A stretch of DNA of 64,000 bases from Okamejei kenojei. Its lineage: Eukaryota. The notes beneath the pieces are model-generated. The model saw only the letters and a list, made by a program, of their open reading frames with translations, had not been told where the DNA came from and made no database searches. The stretch covers positions 76,880,001 to 76,944,000 of the forward strand of contig CM069137.1 of the NCBI GenBank assembly GCA_035221665.1. The letters run 5' to 3'. Shown here piece after piece: positions 3,401-54,400 of this stretch (positions are counted from its first letter, which is position 1; the number at the start of each line of letters is the position of its first letter). Both the position numbers and the translations under genes were made by a program.

Positions 3401-6400
3401 TTGGCTATAATGTACTCATTATAAAAATTATTTCAATAAGGAAGACAGATTGACACAGCACAAGTGGCACACATGCACAAACAAAACAAAGTAAAAGAAC
3501 TCTTAACTGAACTACTTTATAAGATAGTGCCATATTGGCAGAAGCATTTATCCAAAGGATAATTAAAACATGTGCGTTCCTTTGTACCACAATCTTTTCT
3601 TCTTGTGGAATCATTTCTTCAGGAACAAACTCAGGAACCTCAGGCACTTTAAGAATTTAATTTTTGGACAGAAGAATATCAGAGGCACACACTCAGAACA
3701 TTTTAAAATAGCAATGCACGTAACATTAAATGCAAGGAAGCAACTAGTATATGATGCGTCCATTATCTTGTAGCAATCATATAACTATTATGATCTTGGT
3801 ATATGTAGATTACACCTTATGTAGCCTATTAAATAATTCATGTAGAAATGCTTGACTGCATATTAATTACAAGGTATTTAGTAATAAACTCAATTAATCC
3901 AAATTATTTAGATGAAAATTGCACTATTTTCCTGAGACAGCTTCTGGTGTTATTATGTCTGGCAGTGTACATGATTTATCTAGAGAACACGCCTCCAAAT
4001 GAAGTAAAACAGAAAATGCTAAAAAAAAAACACTTAACACTAGGCACATTTATGGAAAAAGACACAGTTAATGCTTCAAGTCTGAGACCCTTCACCACAA
4101 CTGAGAACGTGATATAGTTTAGCCCAGGTAGTAGAGAAGGCAGGGGAGTGCAAACTGAGGAATAAAGAGTTAACTGCCTCTTAATACTGCACACTTTCAT
4201 CCTTTCAGAGAAGTTCCCTTTAAGCCATCCATTCCCCTAATCTCTCAGCTATCTAGATTGATGCCAATTTCTCAGTTATGATGAACTGTCTCGAACCTGA
4301 AACATTACTGTTTCTCTTTCCATAGATGTGCTAAATCTGTTGAGTTATTCCAGAATTTTCTGTTTATATTCCATTTAGAGGAGTGGGATCTATACATAAA
4401 TTATGCACTGTTGATTTTATGTTTTATTTTGATTTCCAGCATTTATAATTTTATGCTCCACCATTACTATTTCTAATACAATATGTCTACTTAATTTAAA
4501 CAAAAAGTGAGCTACAAGAGCTACAAAATACAAATCAGGTTCCACGTAAATGCAGAGGCATATGAGCATACAATACAAGTGCACACAAACAAATACATAT
4601 AAACACACAATAGAAACACGCAGACTAAAGCCAATTGATCGTGTGATTAGAGGGTACACAAAAGGCTGGAGAAACTCAGCAGGTGCAGCAGCAAGTGATC
4701 GTGTGATTACTTCTTCTTAAATCCATATTTAAACCTTTGGATGCATATTTCCATACCTCTCATTGGAGGAACTTTTTCTTTTCTTGAAACAGTAACTGGC
4801 TTAACTTCATCAGAAACATCTTTCTTGAACACTTAAAAAAAATAGTTTTATTATTAGATAAAGCACAATGAAACTAATGGACATTATCTGCAAGATGTTT
4901 GAAAAGTGAAACTAAACATATAGGACAAACACATTTTATAAAATTAGACCACAAGGCATAATCAACTGATAGGAAGAATAAAAGTGGTAAATGGATTCCC
5001 ATGGTTTTGAATTTCATAGTGCTCTTTCATGAAAGAAAATACTAATACAACATTGTATTTTCAAAAGAGGAAAAATTACAATTAAATGGCAAATCAAAAT
5101 GCTTGAGACAGTAAGAGGACAGAGTGCACCTCTATTAAAATAGAACCCAAGTATATGTGTTTTCTTAAACACATATCTTGTGGTACTGATTATACATGAT
5201 TAAGGTGATTATGTATGCAAGTCAGTGATTCATTTTTTAAATATAGTTCCTGAAGTCTGCACTGATTTCAATAGATTTAAAACATTGGAAATAATGTCCA
5301 GCTAATTGTATACTTGTCAAGTTTTAAATTATATACGAGAGAATTCTTGTGCAGAAATGCAAGAATTGTTGAGATTCCTAACATGGCTTCAACAAACAGG
5401 ATTTCTACTTCATTAAATTCATTGACTTATTTGAGGACGTTTCTGAAAGACTGGATGGCGATGGTCTGCTGATGTTGCATAAATACATTTCACAATATTG
5501 CACCACATGGAAGGCTACTTGAGATTAAAAAAAATAGGTGGGAACAGTGGCTTTAAACAAATTGGACAGGTTAAACTTTTGCTTTATGAAAACCTAAAGT
5601 GCAATTTTTGGCATTCTGTTAGGTATTCTTTTGCAGAAGATAAAGAATAATTTCAAGATAGGCATTATTTGAAGAAGAAATAATCTTAAAAAATAAAATG
5701 ATTAAAGAAACATTAAAATAAATAAAAAGTTTGTCACTTGGAACTATCTTTTGCATAAGTTTCCTCTTCGTAGGTGATATGTTCAGCCTCAGCAAATTAA
5801 AATTATAAAATGTTTATGCTACTCATAATTCAGATATTAAAGAAATAAGATGCTTATCTGTTACAATATATCTGATCAAATAAAATCACTGAATTGGGCA
5901 ATGAATACCTGAAACATGAATAATGTTGCCTATAATCCATCAGTGACAGCAGCTCTTTGACACCCCATCCTAATGTTCATTCTTCAAATATAATTCTAGA
6001 CAACATGCACTATTAATCAAGGTAACATAATTGTGTCTCTACCTTTCTGATAATCAACTTCATCTCCCTCCAGAATTGTGTAAGTAACTTCTTCGTAACT
6101 CTTGGATATTTCAGTGACTTTAAAAGAGATATATTCTGTTAGTTTATATCAGTAAGAATATGTTTCATGCATGACAACACTTGAGACGAGGCAGTATAAG
6201 TTTACGGAAATAACATATCTTTAACTTTATCAATTTAATTTGAGCAAAATACTATTTTGACCCTCTTCTATTTATGTTCATTTGTTCTAAGACATATGTG
6301 TGATAGCAAATGGTCATCTCAGATGAGGAACTGTCTTCGGGGAAGTAAAGAGAATAACTAAATTAATATTAATAGAGATAAATAAATTATCACCAACTAA

Positions 6401-9400: not shown

Positions 9401-12400
9401 AACTGGCCTCAACTACCCTCTGTATTCCAGAGACTCACCACTCTCTGTGTGAAAAAGTCTTTCTCATCTCGGTCTTAAAGGATTTCCCCCTTACCTTAAT
9501 GTGAACCTTCCCCAACATCGGGAACAATCTTCCTGCATCTAGCCCGTCCAATAAGAATCTTGAAAGTTTCTATAGATCCCCTCTCAATCTCCTAAATTCC
9601 AAGAGAGTAAAAAAGTCTATCCAGTCTTTCTTCATAAGACATGACATCCCAGGAATCAGTCTGGTGAACCTTCTCTGCAATGGCAATAATGTCCTTCCTC
9701 AGATTTGGAGACCAAAACTGTACGCAATACTCCAGGTGTGGTCTCACCAAGACCCTGTACCTACCTCCTGCTCCTGTAAAGAACCTCTCCCAATCTCCTT
9801 ATTTGATTATTCTAATGGGTTCTATTTTGGAATTCCTCACATACAACATCTTATCCATTATTTATATTCTTCCTTCTTACTTCTGAATACCTCTATCGGG
9901 TCACTTGTTACATTTAGTCATCCTTTCTTATTCTGATAACAAGTTCTGCCTTCATTTTGTAAATCATTTTTGTACTTCTCAGTGCTGATCAAGGTTCAAA
10001 ATTCAATTTAACATAATTTCTCTGATTCAAATTGGCTCACTGTAAGTTAGCCTCAGGAGGTAAAAAACAAAATAAATAACCACAGCAATGGAAAGAAGAT
10101 TAAATTATTACAATGAACAAACCTTCGTCTTCTGTTGTGACATTATGGATAGTCATAAAATGCCGGCGCCCTACTCTTCTGAAGCTATATTTTTCACTTT
10201 CTTTCAGCACCACCGTATCTTTAAACCAGGTTACAATGGCATCATCAAAAGACACTTCACACTCAAATACAGCTGACTCGTGTTCTTTCACCACAATATC
10301 CTGAATTGTCTTTGTGAATTCAATTGGGTGAGCTATAACACATAAAAACAAAAATTCATATTAAAAATCCACTCTCAAAATATGATTAGAATAACCCCAT
10401 TTTATAGAGCTACAAACCTTGAACATTTAAATCAGCAGTTGTCTCTTGATCTTCAAACCTGCAAGTAAATCGGCCTTGGTCCTCTGGTTTCAAGTCACTA
10501 ATAGTGACTTTCTGCAACTTATCCACAACATCTATGGAGTATCTGCCCTGCCCCTCAATTCTCCTCCCATTTTTAAACCACTCCGTTTTTAGATTTGGTA
10601 AGGAAAACTGGCAAACCATGATACAAATATGGCCTTCCTTTCCGGAAAGATTTTCAAGATGCTGTTCAACAATAGGTTCTGGAGAACACAAACCGATTTA
10701 AGTAAATTAGATGAGTTCAAAAGTTTCCAAACAACATTTAGAAATTAAAATATAAATATAATAACAACTTACCAACAACAGTTAGTTTTGCACTTGAGAT
10801 ATGTGGGCCACAGACAATGCGGAAGTTGCCTTGATCTTGCAGAGCACAGTCTTTAATCTTTAGACGATGAATGTCACCATCAATGCTAATTTCATACTTG
10901 CTATTCGATTCCAATTTTTCAGTCCCTTTGTACCAGGAAAGTTTAATTTCAGGATAATTTATTTTGATGGCACATTCAAACTCTGCATCTGCATTTGTAC
11001 GTACAACCTGATCTTCAATATCCTTGATTAATTCAATAGGCTGTAGAGAGAGTAAATAAATATATTTCAAAAAGGGAACACCCCAATGGAATATGATTTT
11101 AGGATTATAATGATGGAAATCTTACCTCGACTTTTTCTATTCTATGCTGGATATATTGAATTAATTCATTAAACTCCTCTTCTTCAGGACCTCGGTCCAG
11201 CTCTTCCACCTCCTTAATAAAGCACCAATTAAAGATAGTTACAAAAAAGCATGAATGTAAGACACCTATTCTCCCTAACAGTATAATGTCATATGGCACT
11301 GATAAACATAATCCTACGCACCACTCTGTGAGTTTCATCTCCTTTGCTGGCTTTCAACAGTTCAATGGCTTGGAGGAGACCACGGAAATCAGTAATCCCA
11401 TACATACGAGCATACTTTTCATACTCCTTCGGATCAACATTCCTTAAAAGTTCAACAATATCAATATCCTTATCTGCTTCTTCTTCCTTTTTCTTGGATG
11501 GTGTTCTTTTAAGATAAATGGCAAAATTAATTCATTATTGTTCTATTTTAATAATTGCATGCCAAAAGTTACATAAATCAACGTATCAATACAAAAATCA
11601 GTTTATTATCATCAATTTGTCACTTAAATGTATCCACTCCATTAAACAGGTCATGATGAAGAAAAAATATTAAGTTGCATTCAGTTACATTATGCAAATA
11701 ATCAAGTAAGATAGTCATCAAATGAAAAATCAAAAATGTGTTAGTGATACCTAAATCAAAATACTTACTTCTTCAACTTTGCTCTAAAGTCTGTTTCAAC
11801 TATAATTTCTTTTTTCTCTTCAACTTCTAAATTCATACCGCTTTCAATTTCACCAAATTTATTGGATGCAACACATCTGTACTGTCCAGCGTCAGTTTTT
11901 ATTATATCTTTGATTTCTAGTTTGGCCTCTTGCCCCTTTTGTTGGACAATAATTCGACCACCATGGTTCATTTGCCTCCATTTGCCTTTCATCCATTTAA
12001 CATTTGGAATTGGATCACCACCAACCTTGGTAATAAATGTTGCTATTTCCTCTGCAATGTAAAAATGACATTTAAATATCTTGCATCTTGCATCTTGCAA
12101 AAATATTTATTTTTAACAAACACAATAACAGAAAAAATGTTCAACTTACTTTCTATTCCTTTAAAGTTCTTTGGTTTCTCAATGAAGAAGATCTGGTCAG
12201 GTTGTGGTGGAGAAACCACTTTCTTTACTGCCTTTTTTTCTAAATCAGAACAAATTAAATGAATTTCATAGGTCCAGTTCTACTGCAATTCAGTACATCA
12301 TTTCTCAACAGTAAGTATTATTAATGTATGCTCTGTACAAAAATCAAATTTATCAAGCATGAATGCAAAAAGGTTTAGAACATTAGTACCATCATTTTGG

Positions 12401-15400: not shown

Positions 15401-18400
15401 AATATGACCATTGATTGTTGGATGTTTCAGCCATCAAAGTCAAAACTACATGGCTGAGGAATCTTCCTTTGTCTTTCAATACAATAAAGATCTCAAGGCA
15501 ACTTCAATTTTTCCTTAATATATTAAACTTCAAGAAGTTGAATATTTCGCAAACCATAATTTTACAAATTTGTGGCATCCATACATCACTCACATAATAA
15601 TAACAATTTAATTAATAACTACCCCATACCTTGGATTGTTAGCTTGGATTTGGAATTGTCAGTTCCAGCCTCATTTGTGGCTTTACACAGGAAGTCACCA
15701 CTATCTGTTTTGGCAACTGTTTTAATTTCAACTGTGGCTGTGCCATCTATGAAAGTCATGCTCAGTTTTTCAGATGGTTTTATTTCTTTCCTGTCTTTGA
15801 ACCATTGGACTTTAATTGGTTCTGACCCATGAACATGACATTTTAGCTGCAATGACTCTCCTTCTGTTATTGTCATTGGTTTAAGTGGAATATCAAAGAC
15901 AGGTGGCTTCTTCAGTTCTAAAATAACAACAAAAGAAATGTCAATAGTTAATACATTAACATTTTCATTATCAATTTCATTTTATTCCCTCTTCCTCTAG
16001 AGATTTTGCCATTTCCAGACAATCCATTTTTCTTTTCATCTGAAAATACTTAGCAGCAGACTTGCTCAATATTATAAATTACCATCAATAATGCAAGGGA
16101 TATATGCATTTTTGTCAGGCAATACATTTATGTTATCCTTCAGAACTCATCCACTACACAGAATTTCAACTACTGACCTAGGGGCTAGAGGAATCAAGGG
16201 ATATGGGGAGAAGGCAGGCACGGGTTATTGATTCGGGACGATCAGCCACGATCACAATAAATGGCGGTGGTGGCTCAAAGGGCCGAATGGCCTCCTGCAC
16301 CTATTTTCTATGTTTCTATGACCTATCCAGGAAATGATGAAAAGTGCCCAACAACAAAAAGCAGATGACATAGCATGATGCCTCTGTCAATGGCAGAATG
16401 AGACTAGCTAGGGTTCCTCAACAACATTACTCACCACCACCTAAAAAGTGACATTGGGGATGCGCAATAAATGCTGGCCTTACCAATACACAAACTCTGA
16501 AAAATGAACAACATTTAATTACTATATAATTTCCACAACGTTATTGACTAAAAGGCAGACTTTAAACAAAATCTGTACAAGAAAAGTTAACAACATGCAA
16601 GGATTTTAGAATGTCCATTCGACATTAGAATAATAAATGATATCAAGACTAAACAAAAAACGATTCAACAAAACAGAATTTGCCAGTGTAAACTTCCCCA
16701 TTCCTTATAATGATCAATATCCATCACTGACCTTTGATCAGTACGGACACATTAAACTTTGCTGTGCCTGCATCATTCGACACTTCACATATGTAGATAC
16801 CAGAATCAGCAGTCTGTGCTTTCTTAATGTTCAAAATGACAACATTATTTTTAAAGGATAATTCATAATTTCCAGTTTCCAAGATCTCTTGCTCATCTTT
16901 GAACCAAGTTACAGATAATGGTTGTGAACCAGAAGCACGAGCTTCAATTTTTATAGATTTTCCTTCTGTATCCTGTATTGTTTCAAGAGGTTTTTTAGTA
17001 AAGCTTGGTGGAATTTTACGTTCTGTTGGAGAAAAGAGTAGCATCATGAATATCACACAATTCTAATGGGCCTGGATCATGCTAACTTTTAGTAGTTTCA
17101 ATTGGATTTTCTGCCAATTAAATGGCAGTTCAACTAATGTTCCATCCTACTGTCATTTAAGTTGGGGAAATTGCTTCTTGGATTCAACAAAAGATCAAGC
17201 CAACTGCAGAACTGTATAGACTTAATGCAGATTGTTAAGTAAACATTTTAGGAGGAAAACAGAAATGCGTTACTTTTTAATTTTGTATCTGCTTTATTTT
17301 GGTGTTTATAATTATTTCTAAATACTTTTCATCTTTTTTTTTGATTAAGTTAAAAATAATTTGGTCATCTTTTTAATTACTTGCATTTAAAACTAGTATC
17401 AATGTATTTCATCTCCAGCTTTGTAGCCTGCCAGGAATTTTCGAGGCAGGGCATTTTTTCCTCTGCCACCTGATGAAATATTATAGGACTCCAGAATGTA
17501 GAAGAACAAATTGGAGCCTCTGCAATAAGTGCTAGTAAGACGCAGAAAGACTACTGTCAGTGTCTCATGCACAATATGATCCATAGATTATTGATCTCAT
17601 ATCATCAGTGGTATTAATCCTCCATGAGAGAAAAGTATTGGTATCAGAAGTTCAGCATTGTTCTTGTTGAGCATGTTATTTGGTTTAGTACTGCCATTAT
17701 TTTTTCATCCTTAAACATTATAATTGTGCCTCAAGAAAGAATGGTTGAAGAAGGTGTATTTTCAAAGTAAAGATTAATTAATATGAAGAAAATCTCTACT
17801 TTTAATGTTATTTCTCATAATTAGCTTTTTTAACCCATTGGCAACATAACAAAATTGGTTAAATAACTGGCAAAAATATTTTTAAAAAGATGTAAAATGA
17901 AATATTTTTTTCATAAAGAATAAAACCTGTGCTCATAAGATATACCAGACAGTAAGGTATTATAATTATTATTGAGCAATAACCTTTCACGGTCACTTGA
18001 GTTTTGCAGGAATCCTTTCCAAGATCATTGCTGGCCTCACAAATGTATTGACCAGCATCCCCCTTGTCTGCTTTCAGAATCATCAAATGAGCTGTATTTT
18101 CCACATAAGTTATCTTGTAATTGCCACCCGATCGAATCTCTTTGTGATCTTTCAACCAAGTAACTTTAATTGGGGAAGAGCCAATTAAGTGGCATTCAAG
18201 GTCCACAGTTTTCCCAATTGTAACTTCCACTTGTTCTGGCTTTTTGTCAAATAGAGGAGCAACTCGAGACTCTGAAAAAAATACCAAGAATTGTATTCTA
18301 TTGTAAATGTATAAACAGTAAAATAATAACATACAGCAATAAGTGTGGAAAGCAGATATTGAAGAGTAAATACCATAAAATTAAGGTAACTGCTAATTAA

Positions 18401-21400
18401 GCAAAGAATCAGAACAAGCATATATTTAACCAAACATAGAGGGGTAACTAGACACCGAAAACATGATAGAAAAGAGTTGTAAGAGTTATTACAAAAGTAT
18501 CAATTACAATAAGGTCTGTCAATGACAGATCAAAGCAAATATTAAAGTTAGGATAAATGTTCATTAATTATAGGTGCCTTGATAAATATTTAACCCAACA
18601 TACCTTTGAGAGCTAGTTTCGAACTACATGAAGCAACTCCAACTATGTTGGAAGCTTTGCAAGTGTATTCACCGGCATGATTCATCTCAGTTTTAAGTAT
18701 TTTAAGAGTTGCTTCATTCTCTATGAAAGATGTAATAAAGTTTGTTCCAGGCAGCAATTTTACACCGTCTTTAAACCAAGAAGTTTCAATTGGAGCTGAA
18801 CCAGCTATACAACACTCAAATGTGACAGGTGAATCAAGAGTTACTTCCATATTCTCAATTTTTCTTAAGAAAGAAGGTGGAGTTTTATGCTCTGTAAAAT
18901 AAAAATAGTCATGGAGTAAGTCCATTCAACCATCCTACTTGCTTGCCATACTAATGTTCAGTGATTCATGTACAAAGATTTTGAGATCTTCACACCAACG
19001 ATTGTGTACCATGAAAGCAACAGATAAGAAGCTTGACATCCACTTGTACAATGCAGCCAACCACGATAAGCCAATTTAAACATTAATTCCATAGAAATAG
19101 TGAAAATAGGTGCAAGAGTAGGCCATTCGGCCCTTCGATCCAGCACCGCCATTCAATATAATCAAGGTTGATAATCTAAAATCAGTACCCCGTCCCTGCT
19201 TTTCCTCCATATCCCCTGATTCCTTTAGCCCTAAAAGCTAAATCTAACTCGCTCTTGAAAACATCCAGTGAAATGGCCTCCACTGCCTTTTGTGGCAGAG
19301 AATTCCACAGATTCACAACTCTCTGGGTGAAAAAGTTTTTCCTCATCTCGATCCTAAATGGCCTACCCTTTACCCTTATGTTTCTATAAGATATCCTCTC
19401 ATCCTTCTAAATTCCAAACAACATCACGGCACTGTGGCTGCAGTGTGTGTCATCTACAAAATACACTGCAATCACTTGTCAAGGCAACTCTGACAGTATC
19501 TGCTAAAGCCATGAACTCTACTCGAAGAAAGAACATGACACCAGCGGGCTCCTGTCCGAATCACACAATTGACTTGAAAGATATTGCTGTCATAATCACC
19601 GAGTTTAGTTTAGGGAATCCCCAATGGCATTATCAGCTGCCTTTTCTGGAAATCTATGGCATGTTCAAGAAGGTGAATAACCTTCTTGAATAATAATAAT
19701 TAGGATGGACAATAATTATTGCCCAATCCTAAAAAGTGAATACAAATATTTCCTACTTATATTCTGCTGAAAAATATTATTTAAATGACATGTTGACAAG
19801 AAGTGTTTACAATAGGCAAGGATTTTAAAATTAATTGCACACCAGAATAATGAATAATGGAAAACATAAGAAACTGGAGCAGGAATAGGCAATTCACCCC
19901 CCTGCACCTGCTCCAGCATTCAGCGATGTTTTGAATTAACATAACAATTGAGACTTCACAAGCAAAGGTTCGCCACAGTAGAGTAATATTTTCTCATCTC
20001 AGCTGAAATGGCTTATTTGATGCCCAAACATTATGGTTCTAGACTCCTCAATCAGGGAAAACAGCCTTCATTTCAAATCATTTTTCTAAATTCTTGTAAC
20101 ATCACTTTTCATTCTGTTAAATTCTATAGGACATAATCCTATCTCTCTTCGTTCGATGAAAGCAGAATCCTTGGAATCAGTTTAGTGAATTTTTCTTTCA
20201 TTCTCTCTTTGGAAAGTACAACCTTTGTTGAGTAAGGAAACCAAAACGGTAACCAATTCTTCAGGTGCGATTTCACCAACTATACAATTGCAATAAGAGT
20301 TCCTTACTCATGTGATGAAATCCTCCCATTGTAAAGGCTAACCCCATCACTTGCTACTCTTGCATGTTGGCCTTCAGTGGCTTTGTACAAGCACATACAG
20401 GTCCTATTGATCATTAATACCATTCAATCTCTCACAATTTAACAAATACTATGCTTTTCTGCTACGTTTCCCACAATGGATGACCTCACACCTTTCCACA
20501 TTATATTCCACTCGCAACATTCATGCCCACTCTTTCAGCTCATACATAGCTTCCCCATATGACATGGTCCAATGAACACAATCTCCCCTAGTTTACTATC
20601 ATCAACAAATTTGGGAATTCAGTGTTTGGTCCCCGCACCCAAATTGCTGATATAGATTGTGAATAGCTGGTGCCCAAGCATCAGTTGTAGTGTTATTACT
20701 GGATTGTGCTACTACCTAATTGAAGCCTGTCAACCTGAGAAAGAACTGTTGATTCACATTCTTTGCTTTCTGTCCGATAATTAATTCTCAATCCATGTCA
20801 GCCTATTACTCTAAAATCCATGTGTTCTGATCTTATTGACCAACTGCCTTAATGAAAGCATAAATCTAATCCACTCGTTTGTCTTTATCTATTCTACTGG
20901 TCACATCCTTAAAAAAGTCCAGTAAATTAGTCAAACATGATTTTCCTTTCATAAATCCTTATTGACTATTTTCAACCCGATTATCCTTCTCAAGGTGTAC
21001 TGTTATTCAATCTTTCAATGTAGTTTGCAATACTTTTTCTACCACTGATGTTTCTCTCTCTCCTTTCTTACATAGTCATGTCATATTTGCTACTCTCCAA
21101 CAGCACTAGGTCCAGAATACAGCTGTGAAAAATGATAGGCAGAACTATCCCTGCTTCTAAGGTTGCTGGAGTAATTCAGCAGGACAGGCAGTATCTCTGG
21201 AGAGAAGGAATGGGTGATGTTTTAGGTCGAGACCCTTCTTCAGAATCCTTGCTTCTAAATCCACTTCCTTCAAATCTCAAAAAATATGTAGATCACCTGT
21301 TCCTTTGTATTTATCATCTTTCAAGTTCACTAACTCTTTTAGTACTTTTTCTTGTTCAATACTGTGCCTTCAGTTCTGTATTTTTGCTGGACACTCAATC

Positions 21401-24400
21401 CTCTATTATAGGTTGTGTATCTTCTTTCATGAAGACAGGTGCAAAGTGTCTCTTCCATTTCCTTATTTCCCAATATACATTCTGCTCCCTCAGTCTGTAA
21501 AGGCCCACATTTTGCCATATTTTTTTAACCTACCCTTCAATGTCTTTAGAATCCATTTTTATGTTTCTTTACAGTCTACTCACAAATCCGTGTTGTCTTT
21601 CTTTATCAATTTCTTTACTGAACCCAGCTTTATTAAGTTCTAAAATGCTCACAATTTTCAAGCTTACTGAAATTTCTGTCATGTGTATAAGGCTCTTCAT
21701 TTTATTTGATAATATCTTCAATTTCTCTTGTGAACTATGAATCACTTTGCCTTTTGGGTTTTGTATCTTAAAAGGAATATATTTCTAACAATCAACACAA
21801 ATACCAATAAATATGACTGAATAAACAAAAGCATTTGTAACCCTTACAATAACTAATCCCTTCACTAACCTTGAATCAGAACAGACACATTCAGTTCTGC
21901 AGTGCCTGCTTCATTGGATGCTTCACATGTATAGACACCGGAGTCAGCAAGCTGTGCTTTCTTAATGTTCAATAGTACTACATTATTTTTAAATAATAAT
22001 TCGTAATTTTCAGTTTGCAAAATTTCTTGCTCATCTTTGAACCAGGTTACAGATAATGGTTGTGAACCTGAAACACGAGCTTCAATATTTATGGATTTTC
22101 CTTCTGATTCCTGTATTGTTTGAAGAGGTTTTTTGGTGAAGTTTGGTGGAATTAAATAATCTGCAACAGAAAGAAGTAGCATTGTGAATATCATATAGAA
22201 CTAACCGGCCTAGGGTAAACTGACTTTTACTGATGTTTTCGCTTGAACAATTGGCAATTAATCATTGAAATTATACGTTTCATTTTCCAGAGAATTAACA
22301 TGGACTTCTTGTTCATTCACTGTAATGCTGAACCCAAGAAGCAGAATTTGACATTATGTTGGGGAAGTTGTTTCTTGGATCATGGGCAAGGTTCAGACTT
22401 GCTGCAAGATCTGACACAGTGTTCATTTTAACGAGAATTGCAGAGCGAAAAGTTTGTAGCTAAAATAGTCGTTTTTAATCTTGTATTTCCTTTGGTTTGT
22501 TGTAAGTTCTTTTGAATGCTTTGATGTGTTTTAGGTAACATTTATATTTTTAAATCATTTTAAGATTTATTTTTAAAATTTAAATAATTCATTATTTACT
22601 TCAATTTAATAGTTTTTATTCTACCTTTGAATGTCTGCCAATTAAAAACTAATAAAATAATTGACAAGCACTACAGTTGGTAAAACCTGTTGCCAGCTGA
22701 TAGCACGTTTCCAGAAAAGGGCCTCTTTTTTTGCACAATCGAATACAAATGCTGCTGGACTCCAGTGTGGAAAATCATTAGGATAGGATCTTTGTTTTGG
22801 ACCCTGGTAAAAGCAACAGCAAATTAGGTAGGAAACAGATTAGATAATCGGATCCTTAGATATTTTTTATTTCTTCAGTGATATTATTCTTCTATGACTG
22901 AAATGTGATCACTGGCCCACTCACTGTATACATTCAAGGCTAAGGCATACAAATTACAAGCAGCGTTGCCACGTTACTGGATAGACTCGGTTTATACTCT
23001 CTGGAATTTAGGAGATTGAGAGGGGATCTTATAGAAACTTACAAAATTCTTAAGGGGTTGGACAGGCTAGATGCAGGAAGATTGTTCCCGATGTTGGGGA
23101 AGTCCAGGACAAGGGGTCACAGCTTAAGGATAAGGGGGAAATCCTTTAAGACCGAGATGAGAAAGACTTTTTTCACAGAGAGATTGGTGAGTCTCTGGAA
23201 CTCTCTGCCACAGAGGGTAGTTGAGGCCAGTTCATTGGCTATATTTAAGAGTGAGTTGGATGTGGCCCTTGTGGCTAAGGGGATCAGAGGGTATGGAGAG
23301 AAGGCAGGTACGGGATACTGAGTTGGATGATCAGCCATGATCATATTGAATGGCGGTGCAGGCTCGAAGGGCTGAATGGCCTACTCCTGCACCTAATTTC
23401 TATGTTTCTATGTTATGAAAATTTGTCCTTACAGAATTCACTAATCACCACCAATACGGCAACAACTCCAACCTTCCCTCGTAATGTGGGGATAACCTGC
23501 AGTGGGCACTTTCAAAACAAAAAGGATGAGGAAATTGGACAGGAAATTAGATGAGATACAGAAGTTCAGCCTTTTTCGTATTAACTGATGGAGCAGACCG
23601 TACACTCTCATCTTGCTTTCATTCTTGGTTCTTAAAAACTAAGCATACACATCAGGAAGTAACTAGAAACTGATACACTAACAAAATAAAGAATTCATGA
23701 TATTAAAATATTACTTCTATTTTTTTTATATTACTTTTCATAGATTTGTTTTTTAAGCTGTAGCCAGGAAAACCAAAATAATTCTACATGCCAAATAAAA
23801 ACTGACCATAATTTGTTAGCATAATTTTGAGATTGCAAAATAAACATTCTCCTGTGAAATTCATAAAGCATAGGCTCATAAGATGTACTTATAAGGAAAT
23901 AAAGACTATAACTGTATTGATCTATACCTTTCACAGTCACTTCAGTTTTGCATGAATCCTTTCCAATATCATTGCTGGCCTCACAAATGTATTCCCAAGC
24001 ATCCTCCTTGTCTGCTTTCAGAATAATCAGGTGAGGTGTATTGTCTACAAAAGATATCTTGTAATTGCCACCTGATCGAATCTCTTTGTCATCTTTCAGC
24101 CAAGTAACTTTAATTGGAGGAGAGCCGATTAAATGGCATTCAAGGTCCACACTTTGCCCGGTTGTAACCTCCACTGGCTCTATTTTTTTGTCAAATACAG
24201 GAGCAACTCGATACTCTGAAAACATTGTAAAAAAAAAGTTATATTCTATTCTAAAAGTATCAGTTGCAAAGTAATAAGGTCTATCATTAAAAGGTCAAAG
24301 CAGATATTAAAGTAAAGCTAAGATAAATGTTAATTAAGCTGCCTCGGTAAATTTTTAATCCAACATACCTTTGAGAGCTAGTTTCGAACTACATGAAGCA

Positions 24401-27400
24401 ACTCCAACTATGTTGGAAGCTTTGCAAGTATATTCACCAGCATGATTCATATCAGTTTTAAGAATATTAAGAGATGCCACATTCTCTATGAATGATATCA
24501 TTAAGTTTTCTCCTGGGAGCAATTTTATACCATCTTTAAACCAAGAGGTTTTAATCGGAGCAGAACCAGCTGTACAACATTCAAATGTTACTGGTTGACC
24601 AAGAGTTATTTCCATATTCTTAATTTTTCTTACGAAAGAGGGTGCAATTTTGTGTTCTGTAAAATAAACCATTATGTGTGACCATTCTGACTTTCTGCAT
24701 CCGCTCACGGTGATTCAAGTATTAGAAACCCAGGTCACTCCGAAAACACACTTTGCAATCTCTCACCATGACAAATCACTTGCGAAGCTTAATATTATCT
24801 CAGACAGTTCCTGCCCATCAGTGTGCACAATACACTTCATTTACTTGTCTCGGCATCTCTGACTGAACTGCTGCACTGTCTTCATTATTCACAAGTGAAA
24901 GGTTGCAGGGACTTCCCAAGTATAACACAAAATGTGAACATCACTAGGGCACTCTCTTTAATATAACTCTCCAAATAAACATACATTTACCCTATAATGT
25001 TCTAAAAACATTCACTCGCATCAGCTTGTTTAAATACCAAAAGCTAATGATATTAGTTAGTTCAATTGAATGCGATTATACTTGCAAGATTTGAAATCAC
25101 ATGATGCAACTGTGTGAGCAAACACTGCATCTTAGTAGAACAGCGCATAGCATGGAGCTACTTGATCAAAGTGGCCTGGATTTATCACTGTATTTATAAA
25201 TTGATTGGTACCTCAATATATATATATGCACACTGATATTTGTCCAAAAAAATTAAGAGAGGGGACAACATTATGATTAGATGGAGAGCAAATCCACTAA
25301 TAATGAAGATATACACAATAAGCTGGGGTAACTTAGCGGGACTGGCAGCATCTCTGGAGAGAAGGAATGGGTGATGTTTTGGGTCGAGACCCTTCGCCAG
25401 ACTGAGAATGAAGACTGATTGTATAGATTTCTCTATTGTAAGTCATTAGTTGAAAGACAAAAAAGAAATGAATATGGGTAAAAACAACTGATAGCAGGCA
25501 ACTGGAAATTAGAATAATACTCATTGCATGCTTATTATAACTGAATAATATCAAGATTTTGAAAATAGTGCAATTTCTTTACAAACAAACAATGAAAGTT
25601 ACAGGTATAAGCTTCCCCGACCTTTGTAATCAAAAGTAGCCATTACTAACCTTGGATCAGTACAGACACATTAAACGTTGCAGTGCCTGTTTCATTGGAT
25701 GCTTCACATGTATAAACACCAGAATCAGAATGCTGTGCATTCTTGATGTTCAATATTACTATATTATTTTTAAAAGATAGTTCATAATTTTCAGATCGCA
25801 AGATCTCTTGCTCATCTTTGAACCAAGTTATAGATAAAGGTTGTGAACCAGAAACACGAGCTTCAATTTTTATAAATTTTCCTTCTGTTTCCTGTATTGT
25901 TTCAATAGGTTTTTTAGTAAAGCTTGGTGGAACTTTACGATCTGTAACAGACAGGATGTAACGGTAGCACTATGAACATCTTAAACAACTAGTTTGCTGA
26001 AGCATGCTAACTTTTGCTAACTGGAACAGTTTCCACTTAAGGGCCTGTCCCACTTGGGTATCATTTGCGCGTCACGCAGGTGGCGCGCGAGGATTTTGAG
26101 AATCCCAAAATCCTAGGGCACCCCGCACACCCCCGCATCACTGCCTATGCCACCACACGCCATGCACACGTAATGCATGCCATGCGCCATGCATCGTGAC
26201 ACGTAAATGATGTTGCGTAAATGACGCGCAAATGACGCCCAAGTGGGACAGGCCCTTTAGTCTTTGAAATGGAGGTGCATTGTTAACACCTGTCGACTTA
26301 TTGATGCGGACTTATAAATAGTTAATCATACCATGGGTTTTCAACACATTTATGGTCGGGAAGTTGGTTCTTAGATCAGGCACAAGATCTGATTTTGTGA
26401 AAGTTCTGATATCCTAATACTTTTAATAGGGATTGTAGAGAAAAAAATTGAGACAGTAAAGGGGCATGCATTACCATTAAATGTTGTTTTTGCTTTATTT
26501 TGGTGTTTTTAATTGTTTTAAGGTGCTTTTATGCATGATGACTTTTTTCATCCCTTTTTAAAAAATAATCATCTATTTCAGTAGGTTATTTTTAACAGTC
26601 TCTGAATATCAGACACATTTAAAATGAAAAAGGTCAATTACAACTATTATAGCCAGTAAAGCACCACTCCCAATTTTGCCAGTTGTCAAGCGTTCCTTAC
26701 AGCATCCTTACTGTTCCATAGAATGCTTCCTACTCAATAGGTAGAGAACCATTAAGGTAGGCTCTCTACATTAGACCCTGTTAAGGGCTGACATAGACAG
26801 AGCATAAGCAATGATTCAGGCAGGCGGGCAGATTAACATAATCTGATCTATCTATATATTTTTTAATTATTTTGTGATATTATTCTTCCACAGGAGGAAT
26901 GCAATTGCTTGAAAACAGAATATATTCAAGACCAAGGTCAATTGTTTATTGAGTCCATTGAAATGAAGAGTTATGGGAAAGTGCAGGAAATTTAAGTCAA
27001 TAGAAAAGTTAAACTTTGTTCTTCTTGAATGGTGGAACAGGCTATTTGTTCTCCTAATTGTAAACCTCATATTGTTTGGTTGTTGAAAACTAATAATATG
27101 CCTCAGGAAATTATTTTTTCAGACTGATATGACAGTAACATACGTATTTAAAGATCAGCATTAAAATAATTCCACTACCTTTGCCTAATTTACAAAGTTT
27201 GATTATTTTTTAAGTGCCTGCAAAGGTATTCAGGAAAAGCAAAACAAAAATTGCACATGGACAACATAATAAAAATTGACCAAGTAACCAGTAAGGTAGA
27301 CAAAAATGCTGGAGAAACTCAGTGTGTGAGGCAGCATCTATGGAGCTAAGGAATAGCTATTCCTTTGCTCCATAGATGCTGCCTCACCCGCTGAGTTTCT

Positions 27401-30400
27401 CCAGCATTTTTGTCTACCTTCGATTTTTCCAGCATCTGCAATCTTTCTTGAACAAGTAACCAGTAAGAATCATATTGAAGCTGTGGAAAAAACATTACCC
27501 TTTGAAATGAGTTGTCTGGGCTCTCAGAGTATACTATAAAAGAGTTGTATTTGTTATTGTTCGATACCTTTCACAGTCACGTCAGTTTTGCATGAATCCT
27601 TTCCAATATCATTGCTGGCCTCGCAAATGTATTGACAAGCATCTCCCTTGTCTGCTTTCAGAATAATTAGGTGAGGTGTATTTTCTACATAAGATATCTT
27701 GTAATTGCCACCTGATCGCATCTCATTGCCATCCTTCAGCCAAGTAACTTTAACTGGTGGAGAGCCAGTTAAGTGGCATTCAAGATCCACACTTTGCCCA
27801 GCTGTAACTTCCACTGGTTGTAATCTTTTGTCAAATACAGGGGCAACTCTAGGCTCTAAAGACATAACAAAAATATAATTATGTTTTATTGTAAAATAAT
27901 TAACAGCAAGGTACTAACACCTAGCAATGTTAGATGAAAGCAGATACTAAAATGTCAATATTATAATATTGAAGACAAATTAGTAATTATTTAATCCAAT
28001 TTACCTTTAAGAATTAATCTGGAACTGCAAGAAACATCTCCTATCATGTTAGATGCTTTGCAACTGTATTCACCAGCATGATCCATCTCAGTTTTAAGAA
28101 TTTGAAGAGATGCTACATTCTCCATGAAAGATATATTTAAGTTTTCTCCAGGGAGCAGTTTTATACCATCTTTAAACCAAGAAGTTTCAATAGGAGCTGA
28201 ACCAGTCGTGCAACACTCAAATGTTATTGGAAGACCAAGAGTTACTTCCATATTCTTAAGTTTTCTTACAAAAGAAGGTGCCGTTTTGCGTTCTGTAAAA
28301 TAAACCGGAATGGAATGAATTAATATAATGAGATTATAGAAGCTTTAAAAGTTCAAAGGGCTCCAGCATAAATATATACATTCTCCACAAATACCAATTA
28401 ATCTACCAAAGAACATCACCTTGTACAGTGAACACCGCCTTTGATGAACATACACCTATTTTGTTTTCAGCTTTGCACATAAATTCTCCACAGTCATTCA
28501 TTGTTACTTTCTTCAATTCCAATTTTGCAATATTGTTTACAAATTCCATTTTGCAATTTGGGGTGGCTCTCAGTTTTGTGTCTCCTTTGTACCAAGCTAC
28601 TTTAATTTCAGGTGTTCCACTGAGTGTGCATTGAAAAGATCCTGAATCACCGACTGTTATTTCCAGAGGCTCTAAATGTTGGACAAACGTTGGTGGTTCT
28701 ATGAAGAAAAAAACGTATCATTGATTGAAGATAATGCACATCAAATATTTTTTTAAAGAAACGAGCAAAGCTTTGATTTTTATTCCGCAGCTAAAAGATA
28801 TTGAAAGGAAACGAACCCAATATGTTCACTTCAGCATGACAAGTGTCAGTTCCAGCATCATTTTCTACTTCACACATATATGTTGCACCATCGTCTCGAA
28901 TGGTGTTGAGAATCTCCAAAATACAAGAAGTTTCAGTGGTAGTTAAAATATGCTTTTCAGACTGGACTATATCTAAGCCATTCTTCTTCCAATGTACTTT
29001 GATTTCTGGGGTACCAGAGTATATGCAGTCAAGACAAACTGATTTTCCCAGTATCACACTAGAATCTTTCAATTTTTTCTGGAATACTGCTGGTTCTGGT
29101 GAAGATAGAGAAGAAAACAGTTGCAAAAATATATACTTGTAACTCCAGCAAAATGATGTTACCCACATCTACACATTACTAAAACTCTTATCTTGTCTGT
29201 GATTCTGACCGTTTGTCTGTCTGTTTGTCTGTCTGTTTGTCTGTGTGTCTGTCTGTGATGAGTGTGATCATGAAATTACGCCAAAACAGTACATGACAGC
29301 GCTATAATTTTTTGACCACCTTATTCACCAGCATCCTGTGGTATGGTGCATCAAAGTTTTGTTGAGATATTTTTACAAGTTATTCACATTTTAAACTTTA
29401 AAAATGTAATTTTTCACTTTAAAAAATGTAATTGCACTTTCCCTGCCCCTGCCTTTACAATGTTACAAATGACAGGACACAAGAAGAGGGAGGGGAGTGC
29501 TGGGGGATGAGGTGAAATGAGCCACGCCTGCACAGATGGGGGGTTATTGGTGAGTGGTGGAATATTGCGTTGGTGGAGCAAATGCGTTGGGGGAACGGGT
29601 GAGTGGTGGAATATTGCATTGGGGAACAGGACCCGGGGGAGGGAGTGCTGGGGAATGAGTGGAAATCTGCCGCACCTGTGCAGTTGGGGGCTATGGGTGA
29701 GCAGTAGGATATTGCGTTGGTGGAACGGGTTGCGTTGGGGGAACGGGTGAGTGGTGGAATATTGCTTTGGGGGAACGGGACCCAACAGGGTTCCACTTGG
29801 TCTAGTTCTTCTTTAAAACTCTATTTCACAAACCTTTCACAAACAATTTTGTGGTACAAGAATCTTCACCAGCTTCGTTCCTGACACGGCAAATGTAGTC
29901 TTCACTTTGGGAAGGTACTACATTTAGTAGCTCAAGTACTGATATTGAGTCACTGAAAGAAATTCGACATTTTCTCCCTGTTACTAGTTCAGTGTTCCCT
30001 CTAAACCATTTTACTTTCAATGGTGCTGTCCCAGTAACAACACATGCAAATTTCACTGTTGAGCCCGGTAACACTTCCTGAGGATCAGGTTTGCTCACAA
30101 ATGAGGCTGGTTCTAAAGAGGTGGAAACAAAATAAGATGTTTAAAATTAATTGGGAATTTAAAATTCAAGCATTTTGCTATAAACAAAATTACATTAAAT
30201 TTTTCTTTAGGTGTAAGTCTAGAAGATTTGCATAATCAGGCCATTTGACTCTGTATTAATAATCTCATTGTTCCAGCACTGAATTTTTTCTCCTCACTCT
30301 TCTCATCCATTTCATTCTACTTACATTTTCAAGTCTGCAGATAACATCTCTGCAGTAGTCCGGATCTCAAACAGTGAGACAAACCACAGGAAGGAGACAG

Positions 30401-51400: not shown

Positions 51401-54400
51401 TTTAAGTTTAAAGAATGAATCTGCCTAAAATACTCAAATAGATTGCAATATATCAATTACCTCAAATACCTCACTCCTTCAATGTTTCTCGATTGAAATT
51501 ATTGAAGGGAATATTGAATTTCCCTTCAATAATTTCAATGGAGTAACATTGCCTGTGTCTCCAGGCATATATTCAATTTAAAAACAACTGTGAATTGCTG
51601 ACTCCAAATGTGAGGACATGCATCTCTGTGTGGAAATCACAAAGTTGCCAATAGTTATTATCGAGGAGAATGTGGATGTGGGGTATTACAAAGACCATGG
51701 CGATCAATAAACCGTATGAAGACAAAAGAGCATGCTGCTGCTGGAATCTGGAGCAACATTGTGCATTTCTCGTGAGTACCCAACTGGGAAGCTCTGATCT
51801 TGGCAGAGCTTGGAAGGGAGACCATCCAAGAATACCAGTGTAATAGCCTTAAGGGCCTGTCCCACTTGGGCGTCATTTGCGCTTCACGCAGATGGCGCGT
51901 GAAGATTTTGTACATACCAAATTCCTGGGGCACCGCGCGTCACTGCCTACGTCACCACGCGCGTCATGCGTCGTGACGCGTTAATGATGACGCGTAAATT
52001 ACACGCAAATGACGCCCAAGTGGGACAGGCCCTTTACTGCCTGGACAGTTGTGAGAACTAACCAACATGTTCGATTCAGAAAGAATCTGTTATATAGTGT
52101 TTCCAAAAAAAACTACAGCCTTTATATTTTCCGATGATCAATGTGAGCACAAGTTCATTAGTTTTAAGCAAAATTTCAATTGGCACTAAATTATTTAAAT
52201 TAGTCAAATTCAAATAGCAAATAAAACACTAACCTAATACTGTCAATGAAGCTTTACAGCTGCTCATTCCAAACTTATTCTTGACTTCAAAAGTATATTC
52301 ACCAGTGTCATCATTAGAAACAGAAAGAATCTTCAGGCTGATCACGTTATGATCAAAGCTGATTTTGTGTTTTCTGCTAGACACCATTTCATTGCCATCC
52401 TTAAAACATTTAACATTTAGTTCTGGTGTACCAGTTACAGTACATTCCAGGTTTGCTGTATTTCCTGCTGTCACACTGAGTGACTGTGCTTGTTCAGTGA
52501 TTTTTGCTGGTTCTATGAGGAAAAATAAATCTCTTCAATATGTTACTAAAATTAATTTGACTTTAGTTGATGCAGTTCAAAATAATCTGAACTCACCACT
52601 GATTAAAATGGAAGCTAACCAATATCCCACTGACCTGCTACCAACAATGCGGCAACGCACTTCTCAGTTCCTGCGTCATTCTTGACCTGGCATGTGTATT
52701 TTCCAGCATGATTTTCTCCAACAGCATTTATTTGAAGAGCAGCAATATTATTCTCAAAAGACAAAGTAACGTTACCATCTTCTTGGATAATACTTCTATC
52801 TTTCATCCAAGTTATGTAAATAGGCTTTGAGCCTTTTACTTGACATTGGAATACCACTGAATTGCCTGACAATACGGTTATATTTTCAATCTTCTTTATA
52901 AATCCTGGGGGTTCTAATTTAAAACAAAGGATTATAAAACATGAATTTTCATTTCAGCTTTTCATTATGGTGTTGAAATGTTTTAATCCAATAGTAAGAA
53001 TTCCTTCAAAAATAATTGAGCACTGGATTTAAATAGAAGAAAAATATATTTCCACAAATACAATAACTAACCTTTCATACTGACTGTAGAATTGCATGAG
53101 CAACTTCCCACATCATTTTTTACTGTACATTTGTATTCAGCAACATCCGAGGTATCGGGTGTTAAAATGCAAAGATTGGCTAATGAATTGTCTGAGAACA
53201 TTTTATACTTTTTGCTGCGTCGAATTTGTTTATTGTCCTTATACCACATAACATCAAAGGGAGCTGTACCAGTCACCTCGCATTCAAGAGTAATATCACT
53301 AGCTTTAGTTATCTCAACAGATTCAAGTTTCTTTACAAATGAAGGAGGTTCTGAAGAGTAAAAGATAACAATGTGGCTTAGAAAACAATCAAATGCCAAA
53401 GAGTTCAATATCTCTTTAAAATATTGCTTTACACACCTTTAACCTGAATCACAATGTTGCAGCTGTTAATGCCAGCTTCATTCTGTGCTTCACATGAGTA
53501 ATCTCCACTATCTTCCTCCTTTACATCAGCAATCTCAAGAACTGCCAATGAGTTTTGGAATGATATTGAATATTTGTCACTGGTTCTAATATCTTGGTTA
53601 TTTCTATACCATGTTACTGTGATTTCAGGTGAACCAGTAATTTTGCACTCAAAACGTGCAAATTCTCCTTGCTTCAGAGTTGATGAAGAAGGTAATTTTG
53701 TAACAAAGGTCGGAGGCTCTGAGAAATGAAAGGTAGCACACTTGAATAGTGGAACTACAAAGTCAAATAAAGTAGACAAAGTATATGGAATCACCTTCTG
53801 GTAAACGTTACTCATCTTTGAGTGTAAGAAAGCTAAGGATCAATAACAGCGTTAAAAATGTAACACAGAACCTATTTACTAATGAAATTAACAAACCTTT
53901 GATGATAACATTTGCAGTACTATTGACTGAACCAGCTTCATTGGCGAGTTGACAGTTGTAAACACCGGCATCAGTAATTTTGGTAGAAATTAGCTCAAGG
54001 AAGTGTGTTGTTTCTTCATTCCAGATCGAACATCTTGTGCCAGGTTTCAATTCCCTATTATCCTTAAACCACTTAACAAATAGTGGAAGAGTTCCTTTCC
54101 CAATGCTTTTAAGCTGTAGCGTAGAACCAAGCACAATATCTTGGGACACTGGCTTTTCTATAAAGATCGGTGGTTCTAAAAGTCATTTAAAAAAATGTTA
54201 TTTAGTAAGATCAACAGAAGTAAAAATACTAATACTTCTAAAATTAGTTATACTACTCTAACACTTTGTTACTGAACACATAGTCAAAATATTTTAGGAA
54301 GTTGAATATGTATAATTTATCTATATTGAAAAGAAAACAAAGAAACTGACAATATTGGGAGAAATATTGATTCCCCCACCCAGGTTTCACTGCATATCCA

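Follow-up and report, generated by a model that had tools for sequence, protein, structure and literature searches.

Threefold tandem repeat of I76-, I77- and I78-type immunoglobulin exons in the titin gene of Okamejei kenojei

The titin middle-Ig segment and its I-J-K units

The stretch of DNA analyzed here, referred to as the window, comprises 64,000 nucleotides of Okamejei kenojei (NCBI GenBank assembly GCA_035221665.1, contig CM069137.1, positions 76,880,001 to 76,944,000) and encodes the middle-immunoglobulin (middle-Ig) segment of titin on the minus strand, in which a trio of Ig exons is present three times in tandem. The 58 Ig exons of the segment, running from 63996 to 15630, all have AG/GT ends, are of phase 1-1, have lengths that are multiples of three and together form one open frame of 5457 codons. 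A tree of the 58 exons resolves six full and one partial 6-Ig repeats (types A-F) and one 10-Ig repeat (types A-J), and downstream of the 10-Ig repeat the order is K, I, J, K, I, J, K, L, followed by N2A. Cartilaginous-fish titins were described to contain many 6-Ig repeats, six in elephant shark and eight in whale shark, and one 10-Ig repeat (PMC12241362). The layout found here, with at least six full 6-Ig repeats, fits this plan and the nearest named protein is that of bamboo shark with 71-75% identity. Rfam yielded no non-coding RNA match across the 64000 bases.

The triplicated unit consists of exons of the types I76, I77 and I78 (designated I, J and K; 288, 288 and 291 nt) and is located after the 10-Ig repeat and before I79 (Table 1). 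A first-pass annotation of the sequence had proposed three tandem I-J-K copies with homologous introns in a titin gene, and copies, gene and domain types could all be confirmed. It had placed the copies directly before N2A, which is off by one domain, as the single I79-type exon L intervenes. All nine trio exons are free of stop codons, pass the Pfam I-set cut-off and have the marks of N-conserved Ig domains, i.e., a P-x-x-F type start, the N-x-x-G hairpin and the tyrosine corner, with the corner glycine replaced in two of the nine (J1 and J2, which have a common first-base change at this codon). In the tree of the 58 exons they form three groups of three members with support values of 100/99, 99/97 and 100/99.

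The types were assigned using PDB entry 3b43, which we take to comprise I65-I70, and the grouping with domains of other vertebrates. I1 matches domain 2 of this entry best (96 bits compared to 41-65 bits for the other five domains) and J2 matches domain 3 best (91 bits), while K has no preferred domain (45-60 bits across all six). PDB 2rik contains I68 (PMC9529554) and the human 10-Ig repeats span h58-67 and h68-77 (PMC12241362). The domain matches and the human repeat numbering together identify I as I66/I76 type and J as I67/I77 type. K groups with the domain preceding I79 in sturgeon, arowana, alligator and elephant and is thereby of I78 type; exon L groups with domains of bamboo shark, sturgeon, alligator and elephant. 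The trio has the general character of a titin super-repeat, as different Ig types follow each other head-to-tail and the copies group by position, and at the gene level it constitutes the new 3-Ig repeat with a period of three that had been proposed. It does not correspond to the known 6-Ig or 10-Ig unit (A-F or A-J), since the unit is I-J-K and K falls outside classes A-J. It is also not part of the N2A element; the copies end one Ig domain (I79) upstream. The N2A element is recognizable by the I80 exon and the N2A unique sequence near 12050-11320, and by an exon near 11040-10774 matching PDB 7ahs (E 6e-56) and 5joe (E 8e-40), both of which presumably contain I81.

Table 1. Exons and introns of the triplicated region and adjoining elements (window coordinates)
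Feature	Position	Strand	Remark
Exon H (I75 type)	28420..28698	-	single; upstream boundary of the triplicated unit
Intron H-I, 127 nt	28293..28419	-	triplicated unit starts inside
Exon I1 (I76/I66 type), 288 nt	28005..28292	-	
Exon J1 (I77/I67 type), 288 nt	27568..27855	-	D-x-G-x-Y corner Gly to Cys
Exon K1 (I78 type), 291 nt	25651..25941	-	
Junction intron K1-I2, 994 nt	24657..25650	-	first ~230 nt homologous to post-K3 intron (score 68, shuffled maximum 53)
Exon I2, 288 nt	24369..24656	-	
Exon J2, 288 nt	23928..24215	-	corner Gly to Trp
Exon K2, 291 nt	21870..22160	-	
Junction intron K2-I3, 2978 nt	18892..21869	-	19873-19665 homologous to post-K3 intron; interspersed-repeat inserts
Exon I3, 288 nt	18604..18891	-	
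Intron I3-J3, 332 nt	18272..18603	-	internal tandem doubling of ~150-nt I-J intron
Exon J3, 288 nt	17984..18271	-	canonical D-x-G-x-Y Gly kept
Exon K3, 291 nt	16732..17022	-	ancestral place before I79
Exon L (I79 type)	15630..15917	-	single; downstream boundary; between K3 and N2A
N2A element: I80, unique sequence, I81-I83	10100..12100 (approximate span)	-	single

Divergence, formation and age of the units

The introns within the units are homologous as well. Alignment scores are 126-221 for the J-K introns (shuffled maximum 53-63) and 84-142 for the I-J introns (shuffled maximum 41-54; 40 shuffles each), the alignable intron columns are 63-79% identical among the units, and the inserted elements differ. 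The intron motif quoted in the first-pass annotation is present at all three sites (17157-17193, 22354-22390 and 26350-26386; repeat family D18), the copy near 17165 having one mismatch to the given pattern. As both junction introns open with sequence homologous to the post-K3 intron and close with an I-type acceptor, the unit extends from the H-I intron to the intron after K. With the 58 exons masked, the junction introns contained no pseudo-exon of H, L or another Ig type, and in the whole window only the N2A exons and a weak stretch near 5243-5350, which contains a stop, were matched. In the doubled intron I3-J3 the two halves are 60% identical, and the first half is 79% identical to intron I2-J2 and ends in a dead acceptor-like stretch. 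A 48-nt stretch common only to the two junction introns (24872-24826 and 19504-19457; its score was reached in 0/200 shuffles) was considered as proof of a copied junction. It was dropped: it looks like a decayed interspersed repeat, and such a repeat could predate the duplication.

From unit to unit the exons are 82-90% identical in DNA and 72-83% in protein. The units are nearly equidistant, with synonymous divergences (dS) of 0.32-0.34 and ratios of nonsynonymous to synonymous divergence (dN/dS) of 0.31, 0.40 and 0.31 (bootstrap upper limits 0.49, 0.62 and 0.47), and the exon copies appear to have been maintained under purifying selection. In simulations of neutral drift, which placed 0.12-0.165 changes per site as substitutions over half of the inter-unit distance and modelled no indels, none of 3000 runs left two units intact, and only 2-13 of 3000 preserved one unit.

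The units do not resemble each other evenly. Exon I and its intron are most similar between I2 and I3 (79% compared to 63-66%), exon J is most similar between J1 and J2, and K1 pairs weakly with K2 in one protein tree (100/70) and has no resolved partner in the second. Sites at which I2 equals I3 lead in exon I and its intron (58 vs. 35 for I1=I2) and do not lead from J to K (75 vs. 98; Fisher p 0.005). The last 61 nt of I2 (24429-24369) are identical to I3 (18664-18604; p 0.003 by codon shuffling for the best of nine pairs) and likely represent a gene-conversion tract. This fits a course in which a first tandem duplication would have produced two units, misaligned (unequal) crossing-over between these would have produced the third, and later gene conversion would have patched the copies, the order being our reconstruction. 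Several observations speak against this course or leave its order tentative: the three units are nearly equidistant; of the 58 sites at which I2 matches I3, 16 fall into a single terminal stretch, without which exon I favors I1=I2 (21 vs. 14); the K DNA site patterns favor K1=K3 (26 vs. 19 and 15), contrary to a simple chimeric middle unit; and the intron comparison revealed no repeat common to both outer breakpoints that could have seeded the first duplication.

The occurrence in other vertebrates was assessed on 47 named fragments of titin-like proteins (34 and 13), each domain being typed by its best match to the window exons; named non-titin matches and unnamed records were left out. The fragments are gene models, which may omit exons, and come from searches with length limits of 2000 and 5000 amino acids, so that the sample comprises neither full-length titins nor a named skate or ray titin. 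A K-type domain (at least 48% identity; one match of 39% was discounted) is present in 28/47 fragments. It is followed by L in 14, by the end of the fragment in seven, by D in three, by K in one, by a weak unassigned match in three and by an I-type domain in none. A single I-J-K-L row is found in five fragments, from sturgeon, tortoise, alligator, arowana and elephant, and human titin has a single I78 before I79 (PMC12241362), as the first-pass annotation had stated. P0033, the sole piece of a named cartilaginous titin, begins at K and is uninformative on copy number. Judged from these gene models, three I78-bearing trios are not general in vertebrates, in agreement with the earlier claim.

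Extra I78-type domains do occur elsewhere. In turtle models P0010 (Terrapene), P0015 (Gopherus) and P0016 (Pelusios) K is followed by D-E-F and further domains, and the Terrapene model has two I78 copies that are 94% identical, which suggests a long turtle-specific duplication including I78. The eel cod Muraenolepis orangiensis model P0082 has a tandem row of I78-type domains (residues 3065-3410), three of them full and a fourth partial, with two identical, which could be a real single-exon expansion or an assembly or annotation error. In the teleost models P0008 (Poeciliopsis) and P0075 (Chaenocephalus), H is followed not by I and J but by extra G-like domains in two or three repeats.

Copy-specific counterparts were found among 69 short records matching the K profile, of which two are 77-80% identical to K1 and the rest at most 60%. 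P0331 is 93% identical to K2, with the private N-terminus of K2, and 76-78% identical to K1 and K3, and P0330 is 95% identical to K3. In the tree P0330 pairs with K3 and P0331 with K2 (99/98 and 100/98), and no K1-specific record was found among these two copy-like matches. Both records start with a few residues equivalent to intron sequence of the window, which marks them as genomic records that say nothing on expression. K2- and K3-type copies are probably also present in a related organism.

Distances among the K copies are 0.26 changes per site, compared to 0.38-0.39 to the K domain of bamboo shark and 0.05-0.08 to P0330 and P0331. They group apart from bamboo shark K in two trees (98/86 and 82/86), and at four sites the three copies share a derived state where the shark retains the ancestral one, compared to two conflicting sites. 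The best reading of these comparisons is a triplication after the split from the line of bamboo and whale shark and well before the split from the relative or relatives carrying P0330 and P0331. This date is weakened by the approximately unbiased (AU) test, in which a sister relationship of bamboo shark K to any one of the copies is not rejected (p 0.14-0.22), so that placing the event after the shark split depends on a small number of sites and on the report of one I78 in whale shark.

The same segment contains a 12-exon tandem duplication of two 6-Ig repeats (53718-45511 and 44869-37953, minus strand), in which 11/12 exon pairs have 74-89% protein identity and the first pair 51%. With a dS of 0.32 and dN/dS of 0.29 its apparent age is the same as that of the trio, indicating that block duplication is habitual in this part of titin. 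If the trio postdates the whale shark split, the eight 6-Ig repeats of whale shark and the number found here may have separate origins or have been homogenised.

Maintenance and possible role of the additional domains

On balance we favor, with good but not full confidence, the view that the final two exons of the 10-Ig repeat together with I78 were triplicated in tandem long ago in a restricted lineage and were kept as splice-compatible spring length. Six extra Ig domains in series (up to 578 residues) would lengthen the compliant tandem-Ig spring upstream of I79. An Ig domain contributes ~4.4 nm, so that six amount to about 26 nm. Because all trio exons are of phase 1-1 and multiples of three, any skip keeps the frame, and frame-preserving splicing could use the additional domains fully or in part. 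A unit of three different domains would further keep like domains (72-83% identical) three positions apart, with neighbors at most 44% identical, so that a block could be tolerated where doubling of a single exon would risk misfolding. Across the new junctions neighbor identity is 29-44%, the window having a mean of 32% and a maximum of 44%. Low identity of neighbors was reported to limit long-lived misfolds (PMC4660218), and avoidance of similar neighbors is the reason given for the block duplication of middle-Ig exons that is documented in titin (PMC12241362).

The ventricle of elephant shark splices out i28-i69 and retains e70-77 (E to I79) (PMC12241362). The trio falls within the equivalent stretch (32360-15630) and, by inference from elephant shark, could unlike the 6-Ig expansions reach cardiac titin, so that the extra domains may enter the heart isoform. 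Compared to a matrix built from 48 other titin exons, the donors of I1, J1 and J2 and the acceptor of K2 score below the leave-one-out minimum; this is not taken as evidence for skipping, because the matrix is biased to the unusual donors of this gene. Counts of UCUU and UGCAUG revealed no pattern. In a more far-reaching version, of which we are doubtful, the trio would be an innovation common to a whole clade of cartilaginous fish, probably skates or rays to judge by the intron repeat types, and the first described heart-retained middle-Ig expansion. It would raise the middle-Ig count of cardiac titin from ~9 to as many as 15, and splicing in none, one or two of the extra trios would tune passive stiffness in heart and swimming muscle.

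The inclusion of the six additional domains in the protein and a benefit of greater length are predictions, and against a role as selected spring length stand dN/dS values of 0.3-0.4 and the loss of the conserved glycine in J1 and J2, which fit relaxed constraint. They would agree with a tolerated, nearly neutral expansion, which is possible, if less probable, and in which the copies would be translated and foldable and length itself would bring no advantage. It shares origin and anatomy with the favored explanation; the two diverge solely on the reason for retention of the copies. The region duplicates often, as seen from the 12-exon duplication of the same age and the independent I78 gains in turtles, and the need of any translated Ig domain in series to remain folded accounts for the constraint with no adaptation involved. 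That copy 2 was kept over a long time and in a second organism stands against near-neutrality and is not decisive; adaptive and merely tolerated length look alike at the sequence level.

The three units could also serve as alternatives, each transcript using a single trio or a single exon of each type, providing sequence variants and not length. Frame-keeping phases and the divergence of the copies to 72-83% would permit this. Inverted interspersed-repeat pairs flank K2 (23125-23412 with 19090-19378, 79%) and the whole third unit (19090-19231 with 16182-16320, 78%), and could loop exons out or favor back-splicing. However, elements of this kind are frequent, and more copies occur in other parts of the window. 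Mutually exclusive clusters of the Dscam type are arrays of one exon type from which a single exon is chosen; here the exon types are interleaved without single-type arrays, and introns of 149-2978 nt would be too long for steric exclusion. Moreover, elephant shark muscle includes the other super-repeats in series, except for one skipped block (PMC12241362). This usage is regarded as improbable.

Even less is to be said for a multiplied binding or signaling site beside N2A, although the copies come as close as two domains upstream of I80 and in four species I78 and I79 were handled as an invariant pair at the end of the segment (PMC12241362). I79 and the N2A domains I80-I83 are single, no binding partner of I77 or I78 was found in the titles and abstract openings of the few papers retrieved on titin N2A and these domains, I-band tandem Igs are described as lacking known partners (PMC9529554), and the copies diverge evenly with no single surface preserved. 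The link to N2A signaling suggested in the first-pass annotation found no support, and N2A signaling appears to be untouched by the triplication. An assembly artefact by haplotype or repeat mis-joining, to which titin repeats are prone as they are difficult to assemble and which the near-identical I78 repeats of the Muraenolepis model resemble, is practically dismissed by the divergence of exons and introns, the differing inserts and the independent records P0330 and P0331, each matching a single copy.

Relation to known titin repeats and further observations

No earlier description of the I-J-K triplication was found in the literature searched, which took in few subscription journals, and automated genome annotations may already include the trio exons without comment. 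It is apparently undescribed, yet built by the known block-duplication process of titin. Like the 6-Ig and 10-Ig super-repeats (PMC12241362), it has one Ig domain per phase 1-1 exon, a head-to-tail multi-exon block, positional homology and lineage-specific copy number. The turtle I78 copies likewise add an I78-type domain by duplication in the same region; they imply a much longer unit, with two I78 copies and no I-J-K trio, in predicted proteins only. The human PEVK triplication (PMC12241362) is similar in having three tandem multi-exon blocks in the elastic I-band, but it consists of PEVK exons, nine per unit, and is 1-3 million years old, compared to three Ig exons and a dS of ~0.33 here. 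Muraenolepis P0082 shares the row of I78-type domains before N2A and differs in its single-domain unit.

In the current titin model I78-I79 form a fixed terminal pair and the spring of cartilaginous fish is lengthened only by 6-Ig blocks that are excluded from the heart (PMC12241362). The locus adds a third block size, and its extra length sits where the elephant shark heart keeps exons. It thereby offers natural tests of whether the number of tandem Igs sets the compliance of cardiac or pectoral-fin muscle and of whether multi-domain blocks are favored for keeping similar domains apart. The trio may also serve as phylogenetic marker, and it brings no new domain or mechanism.

An open frame at 22944-23318 gave no match to Pfam at 1e-8 and is part of an interspersed repeat. 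In each of the three I copies the B strand has two neighboring cysteines, compared to one in the five outgroups; a redox relevance of these would be a guess. Intron J1-K1 harbors an element with 40-nt terminal inverted repeats at 26035-26263, of which another copy lies near 51845-52036, and a near-perfect palindrome of 128 nt, built of a short repeat, at 27293-27421.

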